Positions 13,387 to 30,863 of a DNA stretch of 31,179 bases are shown here, piece after piece. Position numbers and translations under genes: made by a program. The stretch is from Myxococcota bacterium (GTDB lineage Bacteria; Myxococcota_A; Polyangia; Polyangiales; Houyiibacteriaceae). Under the pieces are notes generated by a model. That model had not been told where the DNA came from. It worked only from the letters and a program-made list of their open reading frames with translations, and did no database searches. The DNA is taken from NCBI GenBank assembly GCA_039030515.1, contig JBCCEA010000044.1, positions 1-31,179 on the forward strand. Direction: 5' to 3'. The number at the start of each line of letters is the position of its first letter. Positions within the stretch are counted from its first letter, which is position 1.

Positions 13387-14367
13387 ATGCTGCCGGCCAA
13401 TCCATCCTCGACCAGCTCTGTTCGGAATACCCCGCCCCGCCATACCGTTGCCGAGGCCAAAGCGCTCTATGCACTGCCGCTGACCGACCTGCTGTTTCGA
13501 GCACAAAAGGTTCATCGAGCGCATCATCCACCGGACGCGGTACAGCTCTGCACGCTCCTCTCTGTCAAAACCGGAGGCTGTCCTGAAGACTGCGCCTACT
13601 GCCCGCAAAGCGCACGCTATCAGACGGGGGTCCAGCGAGAAGAGCTGCTCGCAGTCGACGAGGTTCTAGAAAAAGCGCGCCGGGCCAAGGCGGTGGGGGC
13701 TTCTCGGTTTTGCATGGGTGCGGCCTGGCGAAGTGCCAAGGGAGGAAGCCAGTTCGAGCAGGTACTCGAGATGGTCAAAGGCGTACGTGATTTGGGGATG
13801 GAAGCTTGCGTGACCGCCGGCATGCTGACCGCGTCTCAGGCCGAGCGACTCAAAGACGCAGGACTGACGGCCTACAACCACAATCTGGATTCTTCCAAGG
13901 AGTTTTACGGGGAGATCATCTCGACGCGCACCTACGAGGAGCGTCTCGACACGCTGCGCAAAGTCGCTGATGCCGGGATTTCGGTTTGCAGTGGCGGCAT
14001 CATCGGCATGGGAGAAAGCGATGGGGACCGCGTAGGCATGCTGGTCACCCTTGCCAATCTAGATCCGCAGCCGGAAAGCGTGCCGATCAACGCGCTAGTC
14101 CCAGTCGAGGGCACTCCCCTTGGGGATCAACCCGAGGTAGATCCCCTGGACCTGGTGCGCATGTGCGCTACCGCGCGCATCCTAATGCCCAACGCGATGG
14201 TTCGTCTCAGCGCGGGTCGCACGCGCATGAGTCGCGAGGCGCAGATGCTTTGCTTTATGGCGGGAGCCAACAGCATTTTTTATGGAGACAAACTACTCAC
14301 CACCGGCAATCCCGACGTTGCCGCGGATACCAAACTCCTGGAAGATGCCGGACTTCGACCGCTCTAG
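13387..14367 (+). CDS. bioB: Biotin synthase (radical SAM)
   Basis: [65 protein letters not shown] 13387 preferred over TTG 13327. Confidence 0.97.
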
Positions 14368-14446: not shown

Positions 14447-14477
14447 GCCGAGGCCAGCAGAGCAGCCCGGCCTCGGC
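14447..14477. terminator. Possible bidirectional hairpin terminator between convergent genes
   Basis: GCCGAGGCC...GGCCTCGGC 9-bp stem; no clear U-tract. Confidence 0.35.
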
Positions 14478-15190
14478 TAGGAATTTCTTGGAGACCAACC
14501 AAAAGGGCCGCGGCTTACCGGAGCCGGAACAGCTGGAGGTGCGTATGAACCCCACGTCGCGCCGTGCGGTGTGGCCTTTCTGTGCGCCGCTCGCTGCTGG
14601 TCTTCTGCAAGAACCTCCAGGGTTTTGTAGTGATCAGTTGAATAGCCGATGAAGACGACCTTGCCGTTTTCAATCAAAAACAGGACTCTTTCGTCTCCGA
14701 CCACGTACGCGCTGACATCATAAGGTTTCTGAACTGCCTCTCTTGTCGGCGTTGCAACGTAGAATTTGACGAGGAGACAGTAACCCCGAGCGCCTTTAGC
14801 TATCCTCAACTCGGGATGCTGCTCGTTGTTCGCATACTCCGAACCGTCGTTGGACGTCATGTTCTCCAGCTGGGCATGTCCCGGTCGGAAGCACGCTTTT
14901 TGAGCATCTGGCAAAGTTCCCTCGAGCTTGAGACCACCTGAGAACCGCACCAGCGCGAGGCCGAGACCGTTAGGTTGTCGGTTCCCCACCGCGTTCCGAA
15001 CCAGTCGGGGATACTGCTTAGCGAGGCTGTTTGCCGGAGATTGAGCCAGATCGCCGGGCGCGTGCTTCCTCAGCTCTGCCCTTACGAGTGCATCATTGAC
15101 AGACATTTGGTTACCGCCGGACAACATAGGATTCATGAGCATGTCGTCGTGACCTGCATGTTCTGTACCGGGGGAGGTAGGTTCTCGCAA
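14477..15190 (-). CDS. Divergent barnase/RNase Sa (N1/T1 superfamily)-like protein
   Basis: Ordered motifs YANNE (cf. barnase FSNRE), VKFYVATP (cf. RNase Sa HEYTVITP), GDERVLF (cf. SDRILY), YSTDHYKT (cf. KTTDHYQT); start codon uncertain. Confidence 0.6.
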   Translation of the reverse strand: MREPTSPGTEHAGHDDMLMNPMLSGGNQMSVNDALVRAELRKHAPGDLAQSPANSLAKQYPRLVRNAVGNRQPNGLGLALVRFSGGLKLEGTLPDAQKACFRPGHAQLENMTSNDGSEYANNEQHPELRIAKGARGYCLLVKFYVATPTREAVQKPYDVSAYVVGDERVLFLIENGKVVFIGYSTDHYKTLEVLAEDQQRAAHRKATPHGATWGSYAPPAVPAPVSRGPFGWSPRNS

Positions 15191-15407: not shown

Positions 15408-15653
15408 TTAGGCAGAAGCGTTTTGGTCGAGGCTCTTGAGTACTCGAGCGTGCACCTTCGCGAGATCGGTAAGCTCTGCGAGTTCTTCCTCTGCGATCGA
15501 GATCTTATACTGGCGCTCTACCTCCGCCACGATCTCGATCGCCATCATGCTGTCGATACCGAGGTCAGCGAAGGGAGTCGTCTCCGGAACCTCGTCGATC
15601 TCGGCGACCTCCGCAATGATTTCAGCGAGCTTGGTTTTGATCTCCTGGGACAT
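15408..15653 (-). CDS. Acyl carrier protein
   Basis: 81-aa acidic protein with DLGIDSMMAIE phosphopantetheine site; GGAG RBS before ATG 15653. Confidence 0.93.
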   Translation of the reverse strand: MSQEIKTKLAEIIAEVAEIDEVPETTPFADLGIDSMMAIEIVAEVERQYKISIAEEELAELTDLAKVHARVLKSLDQNASA

Positions 15654-15706
15654 GATGCTTGTCTCCGACATTTCAGACGTGTTCAAACGCGACTTCGGTA
15701 CGAGAA

Positions 15707-17386
15707 CTAAGGGTGCTGCGCAAGACGACCGCTTTCGAAAAGCTGCTTTGCCTTTCGGCGCTGGGCCTTGCCGCTCGACGTTTTGGGTAGGCTGCCGACC
15801 GGAGCGATGCACACCCGATCGGGCGTCAATCCGAACTCGCGCTGGACGCATACCGGAATCTCACGACGCAGGCGCTCCGCTTCGGTCGAGTTGGCCTCGG
15901 CTGCGATCACCAACTGCTCCCGCCCCTCTTGCATCACGCTGAAGGCGAAGACGTTCCCCCGTCGCACGCCTTCGATCTCCGCCACAGCCCATTCGATATC
16001 TTGCGGATGATGGTTGGCGCCCCGAATGATGATCAGATCTTTGAGCCGGCCGCAGATGTAGAGCTGACCTTCAGCGAGGTAGCCAAGGTCTCCGGTGTGC
16101 AGCCAGCCGTCGCGGATCACCTCGTCGCTTGCCTCGGGGTTCTCAAAGTAGCCCGGCGTCACGCTGGGACCGCGAACGACGACTTCCCCCACACTTCGAG
16201 GCTCCAGTTCACGACCGTCCTCGTCGACAATATTCAGCTCATGCCCCGGAAAGGGCACCCCACAGCTTACCAGTTCGAGTGCCGGTCGTTCTGGCTCCGC
16301 GGGTAGGGCTTGACCGCGCTGCATCGCTTCCGCGTCGACGTTGTCGACCGTGATAGCCTTTGCGACATCGTGAAAACTGATCGCAAGCGTGCTTTCCGCC
16401 ATCCCGTAGCTCGGTAAGAAGGCGGTTTGCCGAAACCCTGCGGGCTCGAGTCGAGCTGCAAAGTCGCGTAGGGTGGAAGCCCGTATTGGCTCGGCGCCGC
16501 AGCCGGCAACCCTCAAGGACGACAGGTCGAGTTGCGCGATATCTCGATCTCGCAGCCTCTTCGTCACCAGCTGGTAGGCAAAGTTTGGCGCGTAGGTGAT
16601 GGTGGCTCGGTGTTTCGAGATCAGCTCGAGCCACATCCGTGGACTACGGCCAAACAGCTCCGTCGGGAAGAGAACTACGGGGATGTCACATACCAAGGTC
16701 CCCAGAACAAATCCGATCAGCCCCATATCGTGAAAGAGCGGAAGCCAGCTTACGCCGATGTCGTCATCCGACCGGTTGAGGCCGTCAGGTCCCAAAAAGG
16801 AACGGGCGTTGGTGATGACGTTGCGGTGGGTGACCATCACCCCCTTGGGCTTGCTGGTGCTTCCGGACGTAAACTGAAGAAAACAAAGATCCTCCGGCGT
16901 CAATTCGGGCTCTTTGAATCCGATAAGGTCCTCCGGGGTAGGGTTCAAATCGTCAGGCGCGATGAAAAAACGGACCTGCTTCAGCTTGCGTTGTTTCAGC
17001 TTTGAAACCAGTTCGAGGTTTCGCTGCATGCACACGAGCCATCTCGCTCCTGAAGTTTCGACAATGTGCTGTAGCGAATCGAGGTAAGCCTCGGTTTTTC
17101 GAAAAGAGGCTTGAGGGAAGATGGGCACGGGCACGGCGCCGGCAAAAGCCGCTCCAAGAAACGACAACACAAACTCGTGAGGCTCGGGGAGCACCATCGC
17201 GATCCGATCGCCCCGTTCGATCCCCAGGGCCTGTAGCCGAGCGGCGCGGCGCAAAGCCTCTGCCTCGAGCGCCTCGTAGCTAAAATACCGCTCTTGCCGA
17301 TCGAGTCCCAGGAACCGAAAGCCCCGATTTGGGTCTTTTCGAAGCTGACGAACGGCAGCGGTCAACGTTTCGGCAGTCTTTCGCAT
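15707..17386 (-). CDS. Fatty acyl-AMP ligase (FAAL)
   Basis: FLQFTSGSTSKPKGV, WLPLFHDMGLIG, GAEPI, SYGMAE, FAAL-type insertion (AITVDNVDAEAMQRGQA), TGDLGY, GRLKDLIIIRG, PKTSSGK; ATG 17386 likely. Confidence 0.92.
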   Translation of the reverse strand: MRKTAETLTAAVRQLRKDPNRGFRFLGLDRQERYFSYEALEAEALRRAARLQALGIERGDRIAMVLPEPHEFVLSFLGAAFAGAVPVPIFPQASFRKTEAYLDSLQHIVETSGARWLVCMQRNLELVSKLKQRKLKQVRFFIAPDDLNPTPEDLIGFKEPELTPEDLCFLQFTSGSTSKPKGVMVTHRNVITNARSFLGPDGLNRSDDDIGVSWLPLFHDMGLIGFVLGTLVCDIPVVLFPTELFGRSPRMWLELISKHRATITYAPNFAYQLVTKRLRDRDIAQLDLSSLRVAGCGAEPIRASTLRDFAARLEPAGFRQTAFLPSYGMAESTLAISFHDVAKAITVDNVDAEAMQRGQALPAEPERPALELVSCGVPFPGHELNIVDEDGRELEPRSVGEVVVRGPSVTPGYFENPEASDEVIRDGWLHTGDLGYLAEGQLYICGRLKDLIIIRGANHHPQDIEWAVAEIEGVRRGNVFAFSVMQEGREQLVIAAEANSTEAERLRREIPVCVQREFGLTPDRVCIAPVGSLPKTSSGKAQRRKAKQLFESGRLAQHP

Positions 17387-17594
17387 CAGAAGATTCTGGC
17401 CGTGCTGTAGCAGACATTCGTTCGATCCAACACTTCGACGAACGCCGATCCGACACTGAGATCGAAATCTACAGCATGGCTCGATCGCCCCCACCTCTTC
17501 TCTGTGCCGGAACTCCGAGGTGGGTCGCTAAACCTGAGTGTCCGTTCGGTCTGCTTGCATCTCCAGGTTCTCGCATTGTAAGAGGAGCGGCTTG

Positions 17595-18833
17595 ATGTCC
17601 CGAGTCTTTGTGACAGGCGTTGGCGTCGTCGCTCCGACTGCGATCGGTCGAAGCGAGTTCCATGCGGCTCTCTGTGCCGGTCGCAGCGGTGTCGCTGAGG
17701 TAACTCACTTTGATACCGCCGGGATGGACCGCACGCACGCCTGTGAAGTGAAGGGATTTCGATCTCGGGATCACCTTACAGCGGCTGAAGATCGTCGTTC
17801 CGGACGCTGTAGCGCTATGGCGATTGCGGCTGCGCGCATGGCGGTTGAAGACGCTGGGATGGAAAGTTCGCTCCTTTGCACCGATCGATGCTCGGTGATC
17901 CTAGGCACTACGATGGGTGAGGCGAACCTGCTTGGCGAGCTCGAGAAGGTGTGGATTCATGAGGGTGAGGAGGCGGTCGCTCCCACTCGGTTGCCCCGTT
18001 ACGGCACGACGCTTCTTCCCATCCACGTAGCACGCGCGCTCGGTGCACGAGGCATGGTGTTGACGCTCCCAGCGGCGTGTGCTGCAGGAAACTACGCCAT
18101 CGGATTCGCCTCGGACCAGATTCGTGAAGGCAGAGCGGATGTGGTGATCACCGGAGGTAGTGAGGTGATCGAGCGGCTGCAGTATGCGGGTTTTCTGAGG
18201 CTTGGAGCCATGGCGCCCGACCACTGTCGTCCTTTCGACGCGAATCGTCGAGGGCTCATCATCGGAGAGGGAGCGGGCATTTTGGTGCTCGAGTCCGAAG
18301 CGCACCTCGTCCGGCGTGGCGGGAGGCCTCTTGCTGAGGTCGGGGGCTACGGCTTGGCGTGCGATGCCCATCACATTACCCGGCCACATCCTGAGGGAGA
18401 AGGGAGCGAGCGTGCGATGCTTGGCGCGATCGCGTCCAGTGGCTTGACCGCCTCAGAGGTCGACTTCATCAACGCTCACGGGACAGGAACTCAGACCAAC
18501 GACCCGATCGAGAGTCGCGTGTTGGCACGCCTTTTCGGCGAGGGTGCAGTGCCGGTGAGCAGCATCAAGTCGATGATCGGTCACTGCATGGGCGCCGCGA
18601 GCGCTATCGAGGCCGTATCCTGTGTACTTACTCTGGACCATGACCTAATGCCCCCCACCATCCATCATGAGCACACCGACCCTGCCTGTCCTGTCGATGT
18701 AGTGGCCAATCGACCTAGGTCCCAGCGCGTGAACGTGGTGCTCAACAATTCTCTCGCATTTGGGGGTTACGATGCGGTGGTTACGTTTGCTCGCGTCGGA
18801 ACCCTACCTAACGTGGAAGAACGCGGTCACTGA
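17595..18833 (+). CDS. Beta-ketoacyl-ACP synthase (FabF/KSalpha-like), catalytically complete
   Basis: Cys-His-His triad in AACAAG, NAHGTGT and KSMIGH; GEGAG; NSLAFGG; RBS AGAGGAG before ATG 17595. Confidence 0.93.
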   Translation: MSRVFVTGVGVVAPTAIGRSEFHAALCAGRSGVAEVTHFDTAGMDRTHACEVKGFRSRDHLTAAEDRRSGRCSAMAIAAARMAVEDAGMESSLLCTDRCSVILGTTMGEANLLGELEKVWIHEGEEAVAPTRLPRYGTTLLPIHVARALGARGMVLTLPAACAAGNYAIGFASDQIREGRADVVITGGSEVIERLQYAGFLRLGAMAPDHCRPFDANRRGLIIGEGAGILVLESEAHLVRRGGRPLAEVGGYGLACDAHHITRPHPEGEGSERAMLGAIASSGLTASEVDFINAHGTGTQTNDPIESRVLARLFGEGAVPVSSIKSMIGHCMGAASAIEAVSCVLTLDHDLMPPTIHHEHTDPACPVDVVANRPRSQRVNVVLNNSLAFGGYDAVVTFARVGTLPNVEERGH

Positions 18834-20041
18834 TGCCCCTGTGTGTGACCGGAGCGGGGGTAGTGAGCACCCTCGGGGTGGGGCGCAAAAACTTTCATGA
18901 CGCCTTGTGCGACCTGCCGCAGACCGAGAGGCGTCTCGAGTCCTTGACCGAGGTTTCCATTGATGGAGCGCTCAGCACGACCCTGCTGAGCGATTTTGAC
19001 CCGAGTGAGTACCTGGGCAAAAAGGGGCTTCGGAACATCGATCGACTCACCGGCTTTTTGATCGTTGCGGGACGAGATGCGCTGCGCGATGCGGGTCTCA
19101 AGGGAGACGATGGCACCTTTCGAGTGTACGAGGCCCATCGGGTGGGCATCTGCTCGGCCACCGCATATGGCTCACTCGATGCGATCACCGAGCTCAACCG
19201 AGTCGCTGAACTCGAAGACCCCCGATACATCAATCCTGCTCGATTCCCGAACACGGTGATCAACGCTGCCGCAGGATATGTGAGCATTTGGGAAGGGCTG
19301 AAGGCGCCCAACACCACCATTGTGGATGGAAATTGCGGCGGACTCGACGCAATCCTTTACGCGGCAACACACCTGAATGCCGGACGAGGCGATGCGTTTC
19401 TGGTCGGCGGCGGTGAAGTGTGTAGTGAGCCCCTTCAGTTGGCGATGCGAAAGCTTGCTCGCTTTGCGCCTTCCTACGCTGGTGGGGCGCACGGTGGCGG
19501 TTCGGCGGAAGATCCTGGCCGAGCTTCGCAGTGCTTGCGACTGGGAGAGGGGGCGGTCTTTTTGGCGGTCGAGCGCACCTCCGATGCCTACGACCGAGGG
19601 GCCCATGTGCTTGCCCGTCTTGCCGGGTTTGGAACGGCATTCGAGCCTCCGTCGTCGGAGGCACAGCTTGTCGGCGTGTCGAGAGAAGCGATCGAGCGAG
19701 CGGCACGCGGAGCTATTTCCGATGCGGGGCTGCGCCCCTGTGATATCGACGTCGTTTGCGGTGCGTCGTGTTCTGCACGTGCCGTAGACACGGAAGAGAT
19801 CAAAGCGTGGGCATCGGTGTTCGGGGAGCAGACCGCGGTTGTCGCACCCAAGCGATTGTACGGCGAGACCTTTGGGGCGGCGGGAGCGTTTGGGATGCTT
19901 CATGCGCTCTCGTGGTTCCAGGGAGCCCCAATACAGCCGCTTCTTTCCGGGCATCTACCCTCACGAGTCGAACACGTATTGATTGCGACCGTCGGGTTCT
20001 ATGGCAACGTCAGCGCCGCGGTGCTGGCTCGAACGAGCTAG
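18833..20041 (+). CDS. Chain-length-factor-like (catalytically degenerate) ketosynthase
   Basis: KS-fold motifs (VTGAG, INPARFPNTVINAAAG, LGEGA); Asn at the catalytic Cys position (DGNCGG), HGTGT replaced by GASCS, second His replaced by Glu (KRLYGE); TGATG translational coupling to the upstream KS. Confidence 0.85.
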   Translation: MPLCVTGAGVVSTLGVGRKNFHDALCDLPQTERRLESLTEVSIDGALSTTLLSDFDPSEYLGKKGLRNIDRLTGFLIVAGRDALRDAGLKGDDGTFRVYEAHRVGICSATAYGSLDAITELNRVAELEDPRYINPARFPNTVINAAAGYVSIWEGLKAPNTTIVDGNCGGLDAILYAATHLNAGRGDAFLVGGGEVCSEPLQLAMRKLARFAPSYAGGAHGGGSAEDPGRASQCLRLGEGAVFLAVERTSDAYDRGAHVLARLAGFGTAFEPPSSEAQLVGVSREAIERAARGAISDAGLRPCDIDVVCGASCSARAVDTEEIKAWASVFGEQTAVVAPKRLYGETFGAAGAFGMLHALSWFQGAPIQPLLSGHLPSRVEHVLIATVGFYGNVSAAVLARTS

Positions 20042-20084
20042 CAAGCGAATGTCGCCGCGGACTTGATGGAGGTTTACCTAGTCG

Positions 20085-21320
20085 ATGAGCTGGATTCGAG
20101 CGAAAGCAAAGCGGGAGATCGCCCGTATCGAAGAGGCGAAATCCCAGCAGGTCTACCCTTACTTCAGGGCTTTCGAAACGGGCGGGCTTCACACCCGTAT
20201 CGAGGGAAAGCCTGTAGTCAATTTCAGTTCGAACGATTATCTCGGACTCACGAATCATCCCAAGGTCAAAGAAGCTGCCCGAAAGGCCGTCGATGAGTTT
20301 GCCTGTGGGTTGAGCTCGTCACGGGTTCAGGCGACGACCACGGCGCATGTAGAACTTGAGCAGCGACTTGCGGATTGGTTTGGTTTTGAGAGCTGTTTGG
20401 TGTTTACCACGGGCTATCAGGCCATGCTCGGTGCGGTGATGGCGCTCGCCGACAAAGACACCACCCTCATCCTCGATAACCTAAGCCACGCCTGCATGCT
20501 CGACGGGACGTTTTTGGCGGCAGGCACCCCGCTTCGGCAGCCTGAGGTGCGATTTTTCAACCACAACAGCGCCCGGAGTCTTGCCCGGTGTTTGAAGACT
20601 AGGGAACGCACCAATGCACTCGTGATGGTCGAGGGGATCTATTCGCTCGATGGGGACGAAGCCAATCTCGAAGAGTTCGTCAACGTGGTCAAAGATTTTG
20701 AAAATACCGTGATCCTTTGCGACGACGCTCACGGCACCGGAACCTTAGGAACAGGCGGTCGCGGCATCATCGAAAAATATGGGCTGGAAGGTGAGGTGCC
20801 GGTGGTTGTCAGCACCTTTAGCAAGACCTTCGGAGGCATCGGAGGCATCCTTTTGGGGGAGCGGGATGTCATAGACCATGTGAAGCATTACGCGCGCTCT
20901 TTCCTATTCAGTGCTTCGCTACCGGTGCCGATCGTGGCGGCCGCCGGAACGATACTCACGATGCTGGAGGACGAAGGTGAGGCGATGGTGGCGGAGCTTC
21001 ATGAGAAGACGGCCTACATGCGTCGCGGACTTGATGAAATCGGCTTCGACACGGGCAAGAGCAATACCCACATCATGCCTTTAATGTGTCGAGACGAACG
21101 CAAAACGCTGTTCATGCATATCGGCTTGCTGGAGAGCGGCATTCTGATGATTCCTATTACCTATCCTGGCGTCAAACGAGGAGAGGAGCGTCTGAGGTTG
21201 AACGTGACCCGAGGACACTCCCGGGAAGATATGGATAGAGCACTTGAAGCGCTATCGATGTACGGAGAATCATTCTTCGTGCTCAGTGGAGAGCCCCTGG
21301 AGTTAGAAGTAGGAGCTTAG
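20085..21320 (+). CDS. PLP-dependent alpha-oxoamine synthase, serine palmitoyltransferase-like (BioF/Kbl/SPT family)
   Basis: VYPYFR, SSNDYLGLTNHPKV, TGYQAM, SHAC, EGIYSLDGD, DDAHG, TFSKTFG (PLP Lys), RLRLNV. Confidence 0.88.
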   Translation: MSWIRAKAKREIARIEEAKSQQVYPYFRAFETGGLHTRIEGKPVVNFSSNDYLGLTNHPKVKEAARKAVDEFACGLSSSRVQATTTAHVELEQRLADWFGFESCLVFTTGYQAMLGAVMALADKDTTLILDNLSHACMLDGTFLAAGTPLRQPEVRFFNHNSARSLARCLKTRERTNALVMVEGIYSLDGDEANLEEFVNVVKDFENTVILCDDAHGTGTLGTGGRGIIEKYGLEGEVPVVVSTFSKTFGGIGGILLGERDVIDHVKHYARSFLFSASLPVPIVAAAGTILTMLEDEGEAMVAELHEKTAYMRRGLDEIGFDTGKSNTHIMPLMCRDERKTLFMHIGLLESGILMIPITYPGVKRGEERLRLNVTRGHSREDMDRALEALSMYGESFFVLSGEPLELEVGA

Positions 21321-21612: not shown

Positions 21613-22233
21613 ATGAAACGTACAAACGGAGTCCACGACCCACCCAGCCGGCAAGCCCGACCGGCAGTTGGCAGACAAGCTAGACTGCCGGAGGATATCG
21701 TTACCAAAGCACTCCATTTCTTCGATACCGATGATCCCGTGATCTTCAATCGAGCATCGAGGCATCATTTCAACCGTAAACCGCGACTGGTGGGAGTGTT
21801 AAGAGAGCGTGAGACGTTCCCTGCGTTCCTTAGGTTCTTGGTCTCCGCAGCGTTTTCTCTTGATAGCCAAAGCATTGCTACCATTTCGCCACACGGCAAG
21901 ATAACGACTTAGGACATCCGCCCACAAACAAGCTACAGCCAAAGAGTCGTTCGACAGGTGTGGGCAAGCGCTTCGATCCCGAGGTTGCAAAACGGTTCAG
22001 GACAACAAGTATCAACCGCCGCGTTTTCTCCGGACGGCTCCGAGGTCATCACTGGCTCGAGCGACGGCTTCGCCAGGATTTGGGACGTCCTCTCGGGAGA
22101 ACCTCTCTCTAACCTAACACACGACGTACCGATTGTCTCCGCGGCGTTTTCACCCAACGGCGAACGCATCGTCACTGTCACAGAGCGGTTAGGGGCTCAC
22201 GTGTGGGTTTACCATCCGCTCACCGAAAAGTAG
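21613..22233 (+). pseudogene. WD40-repeat protein pseudogene/fragment
   Basis: Three repeats in one frame (VSAAFSLDSQSIAT, VSTAAFSPDGSEVITGSSDGFARIWD, VSAAFSPNGERIVT); in-frame TAG at 21910-21912 sits where the W of a WD is expected. Confidence 0.75.
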
Positions 22234-22476
22234 TCACAGGCCGCGTCATTCCACGCCGTCAAAGAGGCAATGAAGTTGCAACTCCGGGTAAAATATCGTT
22301 TGGCCACGGCACGAGCAGGTAGACATGGTCTCAGCGATGATCAGCGGCCATGTATTTCGGTGCGTACTCCTCGAGAATGCGATCGAGTCGGGACTCCGGC
22401 GAACATAAGCAATCGGCAAGTCGCTCATGCGGCGCTGTGGGCTCCAAAAACGCAGCTTACCTTATCGGGTACACGG

Positions 22477-22562
22477 CCTACCTGACCAGGTACGGTGCGT
22501 AGAAATCGGATGCGCCTTTCACCTTTCGCCCACCTCCGCCCACCCGACCGGGTACGGTGCGT
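22477..22562. repeat. Pair of 24-bp imperfect direct repeats, each with an internal palindrome
   Basis: CCTACCTGACCAGGTACGGTGCGT (22477-22500) and CCCACCCGACCGGGTACGGTGCGT (22539-22562), 3 mismatches. Confidence 0.6.
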
Positions 22563-22564
22563 CC

Positions 22565-22846
22565 ACGATCGAGTCGTTATTGACGAATCGATAGGTAGCC
22601 TCCAACTCTGCGCTGCCGGACATCGATTTTGGGCCGCGTATTCCGTACGAGTGTCATGTTTTGCCGCATCCGAGGAAGCCGAGCCCCAAGGCGCGCATCA
22701 TCAAGGTCCGCCCCTTCAAACTCCTCGTGGATGCCTCCCACTAGCGGGCGATCTGAGTTGTCGTACGTAGAGATCCCGGCTTCTCCACCACGTCTCATAC
22801 TCCCCCCAAACACATCTATCCCCAAAAAGATGTGTAGGATCATGAG
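22565..22846 (-). mobile_element. IS4-family (IS50/Tn5-like) left end and frameshifted transposase N-terminal remnant
   Basis: EEFEGADLDDARLGARL then, after a frameshift, PKSMSGSAELEATYRFVNND; 19-bp end CTCATGATCCTACACATCT (22828-22846) is 12/19 identical to the Tn5 mosaic end. Confidence 0.75.
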
Positions 22847-22849
22847 ACA

Positions 22850-23192
22850 CAGTATCTATCGATTCCATTTGCTACGCCGATGGCTTCGTCCATGCCGACG
22901 TCAAGCCCCAGCGGGCAGCGTCGGAGACTCCTGTGATGACGCCATGGCTGAGATTATCATCGGCTCATACAATACTGAGGCCCTCTGTACACAGAGGCCT
23001 TGGCGCAGCGGCGGCGACGTCGAGATCGCCACCCTGTGTCGGGTCGATTGGTTCAATAAGCGACGACGAGTCGGACCCATCGGTTACGTCTCACCAACCG
23101 AGTTCGCGTCAGACTACTATGCAAAACAACAGAGCCCAGCCCTCCAGGTTGGACTCTCCCAACCGAGTCTCCGGCAAACTTGGAGCGACTTA
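22850..23192 (+). mobile_element. IS3-family transposase C-terminal remnant and degenerate right inverted repeat
   Basis: QYLSI, then after frameshifts GSVGDSCDDAMAEIIIGSYNTE...PWRSGGDVEIATLCRVDWFNKRR...IGYVSPTEFASDYY; end GTCTCCGGCAAACTTGGAGCGACTTA resembles an IS3 IRR. Confidence 0.85.
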
Positions 23193-23391
23193 AACCGTTC
23201 ACTACGGAGGTCGGGGGGGTACGCACCGAGCCGATGCCGTGACCGCTTCATATCCTCACCCCGAACTTACGATCGATCACGCGTTGCCATCGTACGGCAT
23301 ACGTTCAAAAGGTCCGTGACCGCTGGTCTATCAGCACCTGCAGCCGGATAAGTTTCTTTACTTGGCGAGCAGTTTCTGGAAGCGAGGTAGG

Positions 23392-24189
23392 CTATGGCGT
23401 ATCGAGTCTGTCGAAGGGATTCTCCTCTCCTCCAAGCAACGCCTCAAGCGAATGGGCAGCCTCGACTTGGCTGAGCTCCAAAACTAGAGGTCCGAGGCGA
23501 TGTTGGGTGGCCACGAGAGCCCCCGTGGAGAGCTCACGGTATCCCGCCCATGGAACTTCCAAACCGCCGATCGGCAAGACCGATACCCACATCCGGCAAG
23601 CCTTTGGGAGTCCACTGCGACCTAATATCCACAAGTAGCTATCGCCAGGAGTAAGTCCCCCTTCAGGGTAGGTCACAAGTAGGGCTTTCTGGTCTTTCAG
23701 ATGAACCAGGGATCTTCGCGCGCCCGGATCGAATAGCTTCGCGAGAGGATTGAGCCAGAACGAGTCATTAACGAACTGGCTGTACGCCGCGTTTACCTCG
23801 CGATTTCGAGCGTTGCCTTGAAGCTCCAAACCATTTGCGAATGCCAGGCTCCGTGATCGATCTTCGAGCGCGAGCAGTACCTCGACGTCGTCGCTTAGGA
23901 ACTGAACCTGCTGATTTTTTCGATCCCAAAGATGACGTCGCATTCCCGCGAAGGTCCAACGTACAGCCTTGGTCTCTTTCCAGCGGTCGACATGAACCGA
24001 GATCTCGATTTTGCGGCCAAGTCTATCGGCCTCAATACCCTCTAAGCCGCTCGGCAATGGTTGATCGATCCATAGCGCAAGCATCAAACAGGAGCAGTAC
24101 ATGGCCGTAAGGCCGATGAGGAGACGATAGAGAACGGTTCGACGTCGACTCCCCTTCGAGAGATGCCTGCTTCTCAACATCCCCTCCAA
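23392..24189 (-). CDS. Hypothetical protein with N-terminal TM anchor
   Basis: 265-aa ORF; N-terminal TM helix; motif-like segments FVNDSFWLNP, GGLTPGDSYLW, MWVSVLPIGG. Confidence 0.75.
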   Translation of the reverse strand: MEGMLRSRHLSKGSRRRTVLYRLLIGLTAMYCSCLMLALWIDQPLPSGLEGIEADRLGRKIEISVHVDRWKETKAVRWTFAGMRRHLWDRKNQQVQFLSDDVEVLLALEDRSRSLAFANGLELQGNARNREVNAAYSQFVNDSFWLNPLAKLFDPGARRSLVHLKDQKALLVTYPEGGLTPGDSYLWILGRSGLPKACRMWVSVLPIGGLEVPWAGYRELSTGALVATQHRLGPLVLELSQVEAAHSLEALLGGEENPFDRLDTP

Positions 24190-26594: not shown

Positions 26595-27647
26595 CTAAGA
26601 GTGGAATGTGGCCCTGCCTGGTACTCGGATTGTCTGATGCAGTGACTGATTCCTCGACTGAAGCCAGCATCTACCCAGAGTTCCCATCGAATCGCCTTGG
26701 CTAGACAGTTGCATGCGAAACAACGAATTGTCTGATATGAGAATATCTAAGTCCCATTCCATCCAGGGAGGACACAGAAGGTTTACAACAGCAGAAACCT
26801 GTTTGAAGCCAATTTTAGATGAAAAGAATTTTTTACAAATTGCAGTGTTCCGCGGAACTATCTTGACCACAAATCGTCCAGAAGGATTAAACACACTGTG
26901 GCCAATCAGGCAGCTTTCTCCCAAATTGTTTCCTGATTTTCCGAGACAAAATTGATCGCCAGGCTCCAGAGTTTCTCTGGTTCCCTGGAACTCAACGATC
27001 CTCACGCTTTCCGGCGACGCCACTAGTTCTGCGACACATAAATACAGGCATCTTTCTATAGACGCTTTACTAAATACGGAACCCACAAGAAGAGGAAGAA
27101 TACGAAGTAGAGCGGATCTATGCAGAGCTTCAGACTGAGCATGGTATTCGCTTCCAATCCCTGCCAAGCAAAGGGAGTAACGCATCCACATATCATTTCC
27201 ATCACTAGAATGCTCATTTTCGATTCTATATCGAGAAACCAATCGATACAGCAATGAGAGAGCTCGATGATGGAAAATATCCAGGAAATCGCGGCGAGCC
27301 GTATTCTCAGGAAGATCCTGCAATACTTCCTCGGCTAGGTAGCTAGGTAGCGGACTCGTTGAGCCACTTAGTCCGAGAAAGGTGGTAACGATATCACACC
27401 TTAACTCCGAGTCCTCAGACGAATCCTCAGACCTAGTCCTATATACATTACGAATATCACTAGCGTGAAAACCCATCGAGGGATGATGTCGAAGTCGTAA
27501 TGCCTCCTCGCATGGTGACTCCGAACCTCCTATTCGAGAAGCGTGAGGAGTCAGACGCTCCAATAGTCCGACGAGATGAAAGAAAGACAATCGATGAGGA
27601 TGATCTTCGATCCAGTCAAGCAGTTCCTCTCTGGTTTTTTGTGGCAA
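26595..27647 (-). CDS. tssG: Type VI secretion baseplate subunit TssG
   Basis: FFHLVGLLERL, PSMGFHASDI, TFLGLSGSTSPLPSY, FLDIFHHR, LGESCLIG; follows tssF. Confidence 0.93.
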   Translation of the reverse strand: MPQKTREELLDWIEDHPHRLSFFHLVGLLERLTPHASRIGGSESPCEEALRLRHHPSMGFHASDIRNVYRTRSEDSSEDSELRCDIVTTFLGLSGSTSPLPSYLAEEVLQDLPENTARRDFLDIFHHRALSLLYRLVSRYRIENEHSSDGNDMWMRYSLCLAGIGSEYHAQSEALHRSALLRILPLLVGSVFSKASIERCLYLCVAELVASPESVRIVEFQGTRETLEPGDQFCLGKSGNNLGESCLIGHSVFNPSGRFVVKIVPRNTAICKKFFSSKIGFKQVSAVVNLLCPPWMEWDLDILISDNSLFRMQLSSQGDSMGTLGRCWLQSRNQSLHQTIRVPGRATFHS

Positions 27648-27886
27648 GTTGTATTCCTATGGATTGATATGAAACACCACGCGTGAATGGTTGACGTATT
27701 CTTATCGTTGTACCTTCAAATCGGATTATGATCATATCGAACAACACCGCTGCAGTAGTTGAACATCAATGAAAGCTTTCGTTAGAAGAATAAGATATTG
27801 ATATAGTAATTACGCAAGATTGGAAAGAAATGGTACGCCTTGCGCATTACTCGTGTCAACCGCTGTAGTCACTCGAGAGTTAACTG

Positions 27887-29632
27887 TCAAAGACAAGAAT
27901 GACCTCCTGCTTGTGCGCTCCATAAAAACTCGATGTCTCTGGGAATGAGAGATATCGCAGTTTCATGGAAGGAATTAATAGGTGTTCTTGTCACAAAAAG
28001 CTCATGAAGAGCGCAGCCAAATACAAAAGCATCTCCTTCAGACACGAAGCTCTTGCTATCTAGTTCGAGTGTTGCCCTCAGCCCACGTATAAGAGATTTA
28101 TCCATTAGTCTGGAGACGCTTTTCTTGCTCAATTTCTGGATGGAGTCGACTCTTCGTCGATTGGCACGTTCTCTTTGCGTCTCTTGATTGTTATTTAATA
28201 TATATAGACCAAGAATTGACTTGATCGAGCGATGATCTGAAAAGCCGAGGGTGCTGGACGCAAGATGAGATATCATCTTCCAATGGAGATTACTTCCAAC
28301 AGGTGGGAAAGATGGCTTGGAAATTTCGGTAATATTAGAAAACGTCGCTACAGTCGGGGAATTTTTGGTAGGTAAAGATATATCGCCGATACCTAACTTA
28401 TCGGTTAAATTTCGATTGCTGCAAGTTAGGTCTATCGAGAGGGTCTCTTTTCTATACTCCGGCGCAACGTCTCGTGGAGTTTGCAACGAAAGATAGATAT
28501 CGAATCCATCGTCATGTACAGAAGGCCTCCGTCGTACATTGTAGAAAGAATCAATTCCATCTGATCGATCCATATGTTCGAATGAGTGTAGTGAATGGTA
28601 TTCGGTGCGACTTTGACTGCTCCGTGACTCGCCAGTGACCTGTAGTACCTCTTCGACCTGCACGTGCCTCGGATCGATGTTCGTGGCTCGTATCAAATAT
28701 TCGTTCATACCTACATCTACCGAAATAGGGTTGGCCTGAGTTTCAAATAGATTTACGACTGGAACGCAATGGAGGCAAAACATCTGCCTTGTGACTTTCT
28801 CTGGAAGCTCAGGAGGACGATTAAATCTGAAAATGATCTCAAATTCCTCATCACAGTCATGGCCAACACTCTGAAGATCGGTCACCTGAAGAAAGAGTAG
28901 CTTGGCCGGTAAAGTAAAATATTCTTGTATAAGCCTAAGTCCTCCGGGTGTGGAGCGAGGCCACGGAAGCATGGGTAAAGATTCGGATAGGCCTATCGGT
29001 CTGATACAATCTGGGTTTAGATTGTGCTCGTTATTTTCTCTGTCGATATATGACACGGCGTCCAAATATCGATTCATCCACAGATACATTTGAGACGTGA
29101 CGCCTATAGGTCCGTTAAAAAACAGTCGGAAGCCGTGTGAAGATAGTACAGAGTCTCTTCCCGACTGCGGCACGGTAAGTCGCATGCGAAGAGCCGGTGT
29201 ATGTTCGATAGAATAGTCTAGAAGTACATCGATAATTTCTAAACTAGTTAAGTCCACTGAAGCTGTAGTACGAAATGTACAGAGTTCGCCCTCCACTGTC
29301 TTGGCTGAGAGTTCGGTGCCGGGCTCCACTCGATATGCACCTCGAATCGCAGAGCGTTGAGGGTAGAATTGCACCACGGAACACGCCGGAGTGGTCTGAA
29401 GATACTGAGGAAGTAGTAGTCTAGTTAGATCCTCAACGATTTCCGGTACAGCATCATCTACGCGTTCTCTGATCCGTGCAGTTAGAAATGCAAATCCTTC
29501 GAGTAGGCGTTGAACGTCGGGATCGCCACCTTGTGTAGAAAAAAGACCTGCCAACGATGGATTGGTTTTGGCGAATTCCTCACCGAGTTCTTTGAGGTAG
29601 CTGAGTTCACTTTGATAATAACGACTGAACAT
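27887..29632 (-). CDS. tssF: Type VI secretion baseplate subunit TssF
   Basis: YYQSELSYLKELGEEFA, DPDVQRLLEGFAFLTARI, LIQEYF, LHCVPVVNLF, LTCSNR, INSF. Confidence 0.96.
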   Translation of the reverse strand: MFSRYYQSELSYLKELGEEFAKTNPSLAGLFSTQGGDPDVQRLLEGFAFLTARIRERVDDAVPEIVEDLTRLLLPQYLQTTPACSVVQFYPQRSAIRGAYRVEPGTELSAKTVEGELCTFRTTASVDLTSLEIIDVLLDYSIEHTPALRMRLTVPQSGRDSVLSSHGFRLFFNGPIGVTSQMYLWMNRYLDAVSYIDRENNEHNLNPDCIRPIGLSESLPMLPWPRSTPGGLRLIQEYFTLPAKLLFLQVTDLQSVGHDCDEEFEIIFRFNRPPELPEKVTRQMFCLHCVPVVNLFETQANPISVDVGMNEYLIRATNIDPRHVQVEEVLQVTGESRSSQSRTEYHSLHSFEHMDRSDGIDSFYNVRRRPSVHDDGFDIYLSLQTPRDVAPEYRKETLSIDLTCSNRNLTDKLGIGDISLPTKNSPTVATFSNITEISKPSFPPVGSNLHWKMISHLASSTLGFSDHRSIKSILGLYILNNNQETQRERANRRRVDSIQKLSKKSVSRLMDKSLIRGLRATLELDSKSFVSEGDAFVFGCALHELFVTRTPINSFHETAISLIPRDIEFLWSAQAGGHSCL

Positions 29633-29783
29633 CGAGTATTCTTTTTTGCTTATTGAATAAAAATATATGCTGCACGAGCACGCACACCTGTTTTTCTAGT
29701 AAACGCAGGTGTCGTAAAAGAGCTATTGGATATCCAGAGTAATTAGTAGAACTCTTGTTCCAATTATGAATAATTGAATATCG

Positions 29784-30161
29784 TTAAAGCAGAGTGAATC
29801 TTCCTGATGAATTGCAAATGACAACGATATGAACCAATTTTTCTGAAGAGTTGTTAATTCTCCCATTGATTTCGAGACCGACAGAAAACAATTCGTCAGC
29901 TTCGACTTCTCGAATGGTTAAGCTTGTAACTCTCGGTTCATATCGAAGTATGGTGTTCCTAATTGAACGCCGTAAATTAGGAATCGCATCCGGAATATTA
30001 TGACAAATTTCTGAAAAATCACTTATGCCGTAACCACTGACGGTAGCAGAGTTGTTGACACGTGTATTCAAAAGCACATGTAGATGTGCTCGGATGCGAT
30101 CGGTGACTGTGTCATCGCCCCTGCCAAAGGAAATACGATCAAGAATTCCGCGACTTGCCAT
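29784..30161 (-). CDS. tssE: Type VI secretion baseplate subunit TssE (gp25-like)
   Basis: IRAHLHVLLNTR, YGISDF, IRNTILRYEPRV; lies between hcp and tssF. Confidence 0.92.
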   Translation of the reverse strand: MASRGILDRISFGRGDDTVTDRIRAHLHVLLNTRVNNSATVSGYGISDFSEICHNIPDAIPNLRRSIRNTILRYEPRVTSLTIREVEADELFSVGLEINGRINNSSEKLVHIVVICNSSGRFTLL

Positions 30162-30365
30162 GGAACACTACATTTCCAGTAGAGTACATGAAAGAGAAAA
30201 CGAAGTGCTCTGACCGTGATAGGTTATAAGCCACTTCTGTTTTATACAGTCAGTTCCCATGAATATTGATTTTTAATGAATTGAAGAACAATTCTGGAGA
30301 ATATAGATAGCCAATCAGTTGAACCGCGGCACAATTGCTTCAATCGACAGATTGTATGCGAATAT

Positions 30366-30863
30366 CTAAGCCCTGCTAGACCAACTATCTGTGTGCTCCG
30401 TAGAACCGACGTTGTGTGACCAGGTTATATTTTCGAACACAAAGCCAACACGTTCCCACATTTCGTTGTTTGCGGTTCCTGGTTCTCTGCAATCAGGGCT
30501 TGTGCGTTCGATGCTGGCTACTCGTCCTCCTCCGATAGTCACAGTCCAATACTGTTCATAAGTGCCATCGCCGGAATAGGTGGCGCGACTAAAGAGAAAT
30601 TTCCCTTCGATTAATTCATTATGAGTCATAGCTTTTTGAATTAGCGGAGATGCTTTACAGACCTCCTTCCAGACAGCTATTTCATCGTACTGCAAATCAC
30701 CATGCATTCTTCCGGTTCGGCGATCTATAGCAGCGCGAGAACCTTCACTGAACTTATAGCATTCGATCATATCTGCATATTCGTTATTGGGTCCAAAGTG
30801 AGTTGGCTCGCCGATAATATTGTTTCCATTTGCTGTAAGCTGTACGTAGACTGGTCGTGACAT
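30366..30863 (-). CDS. hcp: Type VI secretion tube protein Hcp (TssD), divergent myxobacterial type
   Basis: LTANGNNIIGE, TGRMHG, KEVCKASPLIQKAM, GDGTYEQYWTVTI, ERVGFVFENITW, HTDSW. Confidence 0.92.
   Translation of the reverse strand: MSRPVYVQLTANGNNIIGEPTHFGPNNEYADMIECYKFSEGSRAAIDRRTGRMHGDLQYDEIAVWKEVCKASPLIQKAMTHNELIEGKFLFSRATYSGDGTYEQYWTVTIGGGRVASIERTSPDCREPGTANNEMWERVGFVFENITWSHNVGSTEHTDSWSSRA

Follow-up and report, generated by a model that had tools for sequence, protein, structure and literature searches.

What lipid would be made where genes for loading a fatty acid onto a carrier protein, for polyketide-type chain extension and for release of the chain with an amino acid stand side by side as separate reading frames? 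The question is raised by a five-gene cassette encoding an acyl carrier protein (ACP1), a fatty acyl-AMP ligase (FAAL), a catalytically active ketosynthase (KS), a chain length factor (CLF) and an α-oxoamine synthase (AOS) dependent on pyridoxal 5'-phosphate (PLP). It lies on a 31,179-nucleotide stretch (the window), the entire contig C44 of the 4.08 Mb, 85% complete genome of a Myxococcota bacterium of the order Polyangiales. Our analysis indicates that, in most families of the order, ceramide (sphingolipid) synthesis probably starts with this cassette. We regard it as a real, conserved and uncharacterised variant of bacterial ceramide synthesis, a pathway for which KS/CLF-type extension has not been described.

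Gene content of the cassette

The five reading frames are uninterrupted (ORF and family scans; Table 1) and form the two divergent units, separated by about 210 bp, that had been described in the initial annotation, with FAAL and ACP on the minus strand and an active KS, a coupled inactive KS and an oxoamine synthase on the plus strand; layout and assignments were both borne out, the latter by family scans and alignment of the catalytic triad. The stop codon of KS overlaps the start codon of CLF (TGATG). Family scans of the window also agreed with the earlier observation that no acyltransferase (AT), ketoreductase (KR) or dehydratase (DH) gene adjoins the cassette. No sigma-70-like site was found in the spacer, promoter and terminator scans of the locus gave no excess over shuffled sequences, and an Rfam scan of the window returned no match.

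Table 1. Coordinates of the cassette in the window and of associated genes on contigs C12 and C4 of the source genome (CFA, cyclopropane fatty acid).
Feature	Coordinates	Strand	Remarks
ACP1	15408..15671	-	dedicated acyl carrier protein; PF00550 3.6e-14
FAAL / acyl-ACP synthetase (AasR-like)	15707..17386	-	PF00501, PRK09192 530 bits
Spacer between divergent units	17387..17594	.	208 bp from start codon to start codon
Active KS	17595..18833	+	Cys162/His295/His330 intact
CLF (catalytically dead KS paralogue)	18833..20041	+	catalytic triad absent; translationally coupled to KS
AOS (PLP-dependent α-oxoamine synthase)	20085..21320	+	PF00155, PLP lysine K247
ACP2 and acyl-ACP desaturase facing CFA-synthase-type methyltransferase	C12:14785-16815 (L084)		PF03405, PF02353
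CerR homologue	C4:4299-5279		overlaps bCerS; 32%, 2e-39 to E. coli BL21 gene
bCerS homologue	C4:5276-6484		39%, 1e-85 to E. coli BL21 gene

The top NCBIfam model for FAAL (559 amino acids), the fatty acyl-AMP ligase PRK09192, was matched below its cut-off of 600 bits; the best PDB match was the fatty acyl-adenylate ligase 3pbk (5e-107), and the protein is the source genome's top match to E. coli BL21 AasR (36%, 1e-111). ACP1 has 87 amino acids from its likely start, with the phosphopantetheine serine in a DSM motif, and a 147-amino-acid reading frame from 15851 that overlaps the end of FAAL is probably an over-call of ACP1.

Distribution and gene order

Related loci were taken as the best 80 of 570 confirmed loci (AOS identity 65–77%), with record titles naming Sandaracinaceae, Polyangiaceae, Labilithrix, Polyangiales and unclassified deltaproteobacteria. 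Upstream gene order was counted in the 54 loci with at least 7.5 kb of upstream sequence, the 26 shorter loci being set aside. KS-CLF stood directly upstream of AOS on the same strand in 40/54, FAAL being present as well in 32/54, while 13 loci had the divergent ACP only (ACP1-AOS alone) and one had neither. The synteny anticipated in the initial annotation is thus conserved, and the recurrence of KS-CLF before AOS in 40 of 54 loci argues that the gene order is not due to chance.

At the level of whole genomes, 40 relatives were compared (24 of the same family and 16 of the same order; 41 genomes with the source genome). An AOS orthologue was present in 39/40 as a single copy with 69–78% identity (one cut, one split) and CLF in 37/40, and the cassette was complete even in the reduced genomes G149 (1.8 Mb) and G116 (2.7 Mb). 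Labilithrix luteola DSM 27648 (L072) likewise carries all of it. Beyond the order, a sample of 128 genomes from the class gave 14 with a match to AOS at E 1e-62 or better, none of them above 47% identity. The five genes are near-core genes of the order and not a rare secondary-metabolite cluster, and their distribution is that expected of a core lipid pathway.

A second carrier protein (ACP2) lies between ACP1 and FAAL in 30 of the 32 full cassettes, whereas the ACP2 of the source genome (68% identity) is on contig C12 and not in the window cassette. ACP1 formed a clade of its own, separate from ACP2 and AcpP, in what was a quick tree only (as was the KS tree). In genomes without the rest of the cassette ACP1 is still retained with AOS: in genus g3, ACP1 and AOS occupy the chromosomal position that they have in the window, with no ACP2 and no cassette KS found (each 0/5 genomes) and no CLF or methyltransferase in the two genomes tested. 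Since this genus keeps only ACP1-AOS, ACP1 would be the carrier of AOS and the remaining genes an optional tailoring unit. Other carrier proteins were also seen, namely a third ACP clade (17 rows in the ACP tree) just after AOS and near thiE/thiG in Polyangiaceae loci (L031, L033, L037, L043, L044, L072 and others), and two more stand-alone ACP2-like genes in the source genome (C2:119511-119777 and C13:98338-98589; 45–49%).

Association with ceramide genes and exclusion of canonical Spt

The yghO-aasR-cerR-acpR-spt locus of E. coli BL21, with gene roles as given in PMC9386255, served as the reference for ceramide synthesis, spt encoding serine palmitoyltransferase (Spt). Homologues of bCerS and CerR, assigned solely from similarity to their E. 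coli BL21 counterparts, overlap on contig C4 of the source genome, and bCerS was found in 41/41 genomes. The two other oxoamine synthases of the source genome stand before a tdh-like gene (Kbl) and before bioD (BioF), and neither a canonical-Spt query nor the oxoamine synthase inventory gave any Spt candidate in this genome other than AOS.

Canonical-type Spt does occur in Polyangia, where it groups with E. coli Spt (99/93) and lies directly before bCerS-CerR in G155 and before bCerS in G160 and G174. It shares 35–41% identity with AOS and was never found in the same genome. Among the 41 genomes, the only close match to the G155-type Spt was in G033, which has no cassette, and window-type AOS was the best match to this query in 38 of the other 40. 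The sister family f17 (121 genomes) showed the same partition: 39 genomes carried window-type AOS (66–74%), 76 a protein in the canonical band (38–42%) and none both, a count weakened by the fact that only 6 of the 76 were placed on the tree. Intermediate-type AOS was present in six f17 genomes, beside a canonical copy in three and alone in three, and three genomes had no match. CLF was found in exactly the 39 window-type genomes, unlinked cases included. Direct neighbourhood was also observed, bCerS being back to back with window-type AOS in G026 and an intermediate (sister-clade) AOS standing directly after bCerS-CerR in G127.

LpxC was found in only 3 of the 41 genomes and in 0/25 of the source family, and cells bearing the cassette seem, on this gene content, to lack ordinary lipopolysaccharide (LPS). 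Sorangium is described in PMC10572746 as replacing LPS by sphingolipids.

The oxoamine synthase

The AOS model (pLDDT 90) was nearest in fold to the Bacteroidota-type SPT of Sphingobacterium multivorum (PDB 3A2B/8GUH; Z 52.5, rmsd 1.4, 388 residues), followed by ThAOS (Z 50.2), Kbl (49.7), BioF (at most 47.8) and cysteate transferase (46.8), a ranking that loses weight through the alignment behind the model, in which 6 of 55 rows were canonical-type. S. multivorum SPT and ThAOS were also the joint-best PDB sequence matches. The fold, the PLP lysine, the stacking His and the PLP-site Asp and His are all present, and the equivalents of S. multivorum SPT residues Asn52, Ser81, His138, Ser185, Asp210, His213, Thr241 and Lys244 (as named in PMC10196870) are kept. 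Relative to the SPT-type PLP motif GTFSKSxxxxGG given in PMC5519370 and PMC10196870, the AOS motif STFSKTFGGIGG keeps four of the first six letters and the GG pair; its STFSKT differs from the GTFSKS of SPT and is unlike the corresponding motifs of the source genome's Kbl and BioF.

In a tree of 33 rows, which held only one Kbl, one BioF and one Spt of a characterised family, AOS formed its own clade (100/99) with intermediate-type AOS as sister, separate from Kbl and BioF. AOS is 32% identical to E. coli Spt. The genomic evidence suggests that AOS acts like an Spt, yet it is not assigned to a known Spt family, and we propose that it is a serine:acyl-ACP C-acyltransferase of a lineage sister to known Spt. 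In PMC9386255 the Spt of Sorangium was grouped with the Bacteroidetes type, and sce7052/sce7053 of So ce56 appear there as distant AcpR/AasR homologues.

The KS/CLF pair

The catalytic triad was intact in 41/41 aligned full-length KS orthologues and retained in none of 55 aligned CLF orthologues. The best PDB sequence matches of KS were 9s5h_B (5.7e-111) and then the ishigamide KS 6kxd_A (6e-93), with 6kxd nearest in the fold comparison, and that of CLF was 9s5h_C (4e-39). Modelled as a pair, KS and CLF scored 0.95 against 0.00 for the best of three controls, the runs sharing at least 96% of contacts with a partner pLDDT of at least 89; solved pairs reached this mark in 116 of 157 cases and mismatched pairs in 2 of 215. 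The model supports a KS-CLF heterodimer, although for a textbook pair such a pass may come by likeness to solved pairs.

A heterodimer of amxFabF2 and amxFabFmut from the ladderane cluster of anammox bacteria is reported in a preprint (bioRxiv 10.64898/2026.05.19.726425), where amxFabFmut is called the first CLF found in a fatty acid pathway. We infer that PDB 9S5H is this amxFabF pair: the spacing of Phe135/Val139 given in the preprint agrees with 9S5H chain C, and the corresponding residues Phe138/Val142 do not vary among 46 CLFs. The anammox pair and ishigamide Iga11/Iga12 resemble the window cassette in joining an active KS to a dead partner, whereas the cassette differs from the ladderane cluster in having no radical SAM genes and an oxoamine synthase instead. 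The window KS/CLF would be another case, beside the anammox one, of a CLF in primary lipid synthesis.

A displaced, putative tailoring unit

The initial annotation, which our analysis supports in part, did not cover ACP2, the desaturase or the methyltransferase. On contig C12 of the source genome, ACP2 stands directly before a soluble acyl-ACP desaturase homologue and faces the methyltransferase. The desaturase was present in 13/40 relatives, behind ACP2 in 12 and cut by a contig end in the thirteenth, and the methyltransferase in 30/40; one or both lie inside the cassette in G025, G035, G037, G040, G228 and G273. A hotdog thioesterase (PF13279) follows ACP1 in 11 of the 80 loci and was not found in the source genome. 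That the methyltransferase is specific to the cassette was rejected, as, within f17, it occurs in 21 of the 39 genomes with window-type AOS and in 27 of the 82 others; given its presence in both groups, it belongs to a wider module.

Five near-complete canonical-type genomes (G211, G260, G240, G258 and G227; loci L149–L153) were examined, and all five carried an operon FAAL-methyltransferase-ACP2-KS, unlinked to spt and with an active, FabF-like KS; two also had the desaturase. ACP1 was not found in these five genomes. The operon FAAL-methyltransferase-ACP2-(desaturase)-KS is a candidate for a methyl-branched acyl pathway in its own right. Since canonical-type genomes carry it, both Spt types would own a load-tailor-extend unit, and we propose that the window type couples this unit to its own AOS through KS/CLF and ACP1. 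A second ACP-FAAL pair was seen elsewhere in each of the five genomes.

Proposed pathway

The logic put forward in the initial annotation, of loading onto an ACP, extension by KS/CLF and release by decarboxylative condensation, holds as a reading of the genes. Reading reactions, substrates and product from gene identities, catalytic residues and distribution, we propose five steps. FAAL would activate a fatty acid and load it onto a dedicated ACP, which in the majority of relatives is probably ACP2. Where present, the acyl-ACP desaturase and the CFA-synthase-type methyltransferase, dependent on S-adenosylmethionine, would modify the ACP-bound chain. KS/CLF would then accept the acyl chain and condense it with malonyl-ACP1, so that it grows by a fixed number of C2 units (in the simplest case by one), with FabD, FabG and a dehydratase acting in trans; FabD is encoded on contig C1 and FabG also elsewhere in the source genome. 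AOS would condense serine, or some other small amino acid, with acyl-ACP1 to form a 3-keto long-chain base, and bCerS and CerR would acylate and reduce this base.

The closest known system is AasR-AcpR-Spt with bCerS/CerR (Caulobacter crescentus and E. coli BL21(DE3); PMC9386255), which likewise combines an acyl-ACP synthetase, a private ACP and an oxoamine synthase, whereas the window type has a separate AOS lineage, two ACPs, an added KS/CLF and an optional desaturase, methyltransferase and hotdog thioesterase. No published description of this gene combination was found in the literature searched (MIBiG was outside the search), in keeping with the initial annotation, which had not recognised the cluster as characterised.

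A more specific and tentative reading is that the sphingoid chain is finished on its carrier before the Spt step. A C16 acyl-ACP might be desaturated and methylated, extended once by KS/CLF and left as the trans-2-enoyl (or β-keto) form, then joined with serine to give a C20, C9-methyl, Δ4-unsaturated base. C9-methyl-C20-sphingosine reportedly occurs in Sorangium cellulosum So ce56, a structure that Keck et al. are said to have described in 2011. Fungal C9-methyltransferases are relatives of CFA synthase, and plants make a Δ6 18:1 chain by desaturation of 16:0-ACP followed by extension; with the So ce56 structure, these points suggest the present reading. Finishing the chain in this way would dispense with fungal-type membrane desaturases and a ceramide methyltransferase, and relatives with canonical Spt would use their own FAAL-methyltransferase-ACP2-(desaturase)-KS operon to the same end, which would account for the So ce56 base.

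If the cassette does serve ceramide synthesis, a large and ecologically common order makes ceramides with a second, non-orthologous Spt lineage missed by current Spt models, and its long-chain base is shaped by a KS/CLF pair, as is otherwise familiar chiefly from polyketide synthesis. There would then be named candidate genes for the formation of long, methyl-branched sphingoid bases in myxobacteria without LPS, and genus g3 and the canonical-Spt genera would be natural comparisons for which different lipid structures are predicted. There would also be a risk that automated genome mining lists a core lipid locus as a new type II polyketide synthase cluster.

Evidence against a role in ceramide synthesis

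Several further observations weigh against the proposed role. AOS scored below every curated Spt cut-off (311/640, 276/500 and 212/670 bits) and slightly higher on the BioF model TIGR00858 (317 bits, cut-off 426) than on the Spt models; the source genome's Kbl outscored it on the Bacteroidota Spt model (332 bits), so profile scores are uninformative as proof of an Spt. Canonical Polyangia Spt enzymes also fall under the Spt cut-off (about 460/640). In the tree, E. coli Spt and canonical Polyangia Spt form a clade that does not include AOS. The amino-acid-pocket loop Gly80-Asn85 of S. multivorum SPT is changed in AOS, where Gly80 is replaced by Ser, as in Kbl, and the loop is one residue shorter; two usually conserved Asn residues of the substrate loop are also replaced. 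As the pocket loop differs, serine is not assured as the AOS substrate.

The sister-clade AOS co-occurs with canonical Spt in three genomes and sits in KR-KS-CLF-ACP clusters, so that lineage is not always an Spt. Clusters of the order KR-KS-CLF-AOS-ACP with an intermediate-clade AOS were seen outside the order in L131 (G042) and L133 (G062), and the G062 cluster continues with a flavin oxidoreductase, an acyl-CoA synthetase-like gene and an MMPL transporter (exporter), resembling a specialised-metabolite cluster. The exclusion between AOS and canonical Spt follows genera and, the genomes being kin, may reflect few events; because related genomes are not independent, the genome counts are to be taken as consistent replacement and not as a probability.

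The reductive steps of the pathway also lack partners near the cassette. A FabG query gave no conserved short-chain dehydrogenase/reductase beside the KS-CLF cassettes of the 80 related loci, and no KR or dehydratase gene accompanies the cassette there. No FabA/FabZ-family (PF07977) gene was found in the source genome (85% complete) or in two of five near-complete relatives (G149 and G228). A different protein family may supply the fatty acid dehydratase in this group.

Alternative explanations

The ceramide base might be made by ACP1-AOS from an ordinary acyl chain, while FAAL, ACP2, KS and CLF build a separate product, either the N-acyl chain that bCerS uses or some other lipid, and only happen to lie alongside. 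We consider this unlikely. It would explain why genus g3 has ACP1-AOS and bCerS without KS, CLF and ACP2, why the operon FAAL-methyltransferase-ACP2-KS stands apart from spt in 5/5 canonical-Spt genomes, and the absence of KR and DH from the cassette. However, the presence of CLF tracks the AOS type in 121/121 f17 genomes (39 with both, 82 with neither) and not the universal bCerS, and in most loci KS-CLF is placed directly upstream on the AOS strand (40/54).

RedL of undecylprodigiosin synthesis and PigJ/PigH adenylate a chain, extend it and release it with an amino acid, the same reaction order as that of the cassette. RedL is one A-ACP-KS-AT-ACP-OAS polypeptide, whereas the window has five separate reading frames and no AT nearby. 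The description of the cassette as a dissociated RedL-like line therefore stands as an analogy only, the closer model being AasR-AcpR-Spt with an added extension step. Of the two products suggested in the initial annotation, the sphingoid base is well supported; the pyrrolinone or signal lipid is not, in view of near-core single-copy genes, bCerS in all genomes and exclusion of canonical Spt. For the latter product, AOS would join an unreduced β-ketoacyl-ACP with glycine or serine, and cyclisation would give an alkyl-pyrrolinone or pyrrole signal or specialised metabolite, an outcome to which we give little credence. The lack of adjacent KR and DH and the Kbl-like Ser at the Gly80 position of AOS are compatible with it, as is a PPDK-family protein (C12:9008-11746) 3 kb from the methyltransferase that gave a full-length, sub-threshold RedH/PigC match (RedH 437/1350 bits). 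Against it stand the single-copy, near-core distribution, reduced genomes included, the mutual exclusion of AOS and canonical Spt, and the consequence that, without window-type AOS, the bCerS of the 41 genomes would mostly have no Spt. Among five near-complete cassette genomes, three had the RedH-like gene far from the cassette and two gave no match, and it was in 0/170 other loci; being unlinked and non-conserved in relatives, it was rejected as a cassette partner. It was the only candidate for a prodiginine downstream gene seen in the search, which was for RedH.

It is very improbable that the substrate of AOS is some other amino acid and its product an aminolipid outside the ceramides, capnine-like or otherwise, the cell then making ceramides by another route or making none. 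The altered substrate loop, the separate lineage of AOS and the cysteate acyltransferase 28eh as its fifth PDB sequence match fit such a role, but bCerS-CerR is present with no other Spt candidate in the source genome, and the fold comparison places SPT higher than cysteate transferase (Z 52.5 vs 46.8).

A biotin precursor route, with AOS as BioF and FAAL, ACP, KS and CLF supplying pimeloyl-ACP, can be practically discounted and was rejected: bioB does lie two genes away (13387-14367) and within 10 kb in 14 of the 80 loci, and AOS reaches 317 bits on the BioF model, but the source genome has a separate bioF-bioD on C29 (383 bits on that model), with bioA on C5. The 14 loci with bioB nearby are the ones without FAAL, KS and CLF, and the gene belongs to a neighbourhood common to the family, together with cyoE, SCO and an aminotransferase.

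Other genes of the window and genome

Right after AOS, positions 21958-23351 hold a WD40 fragment and the remnant of an IS3 transposase. The stretch 26595-30863 carries the type VI secretion genes tssG, tssF, tssE and hcp at about 44% GC, against 57% for the genome, and was probably acquired. At 62-2623 an 853-amino-acid protein combines an N-terminal DUF748-like part with a C-terminal monofunctional transglycosylase domain. Two minus-strand reading frames had no family match: that at 14477-15142 had no match in the 80 related loci either, and that at 23392-24084 is conserved in 12 of them. Elsewhere in the source genome, a lipid cluster on contig C34 (3250-13376; L087) encodes an acyltransferase, a diacylglycerol kinase-like protein, an acyl-CoA ligase, an ACP, an enoyl-CoA hydratase, two fatty acyl reductase-like proteins and a HAD hydrolase, and possibly makes ether or alcohol lipids.

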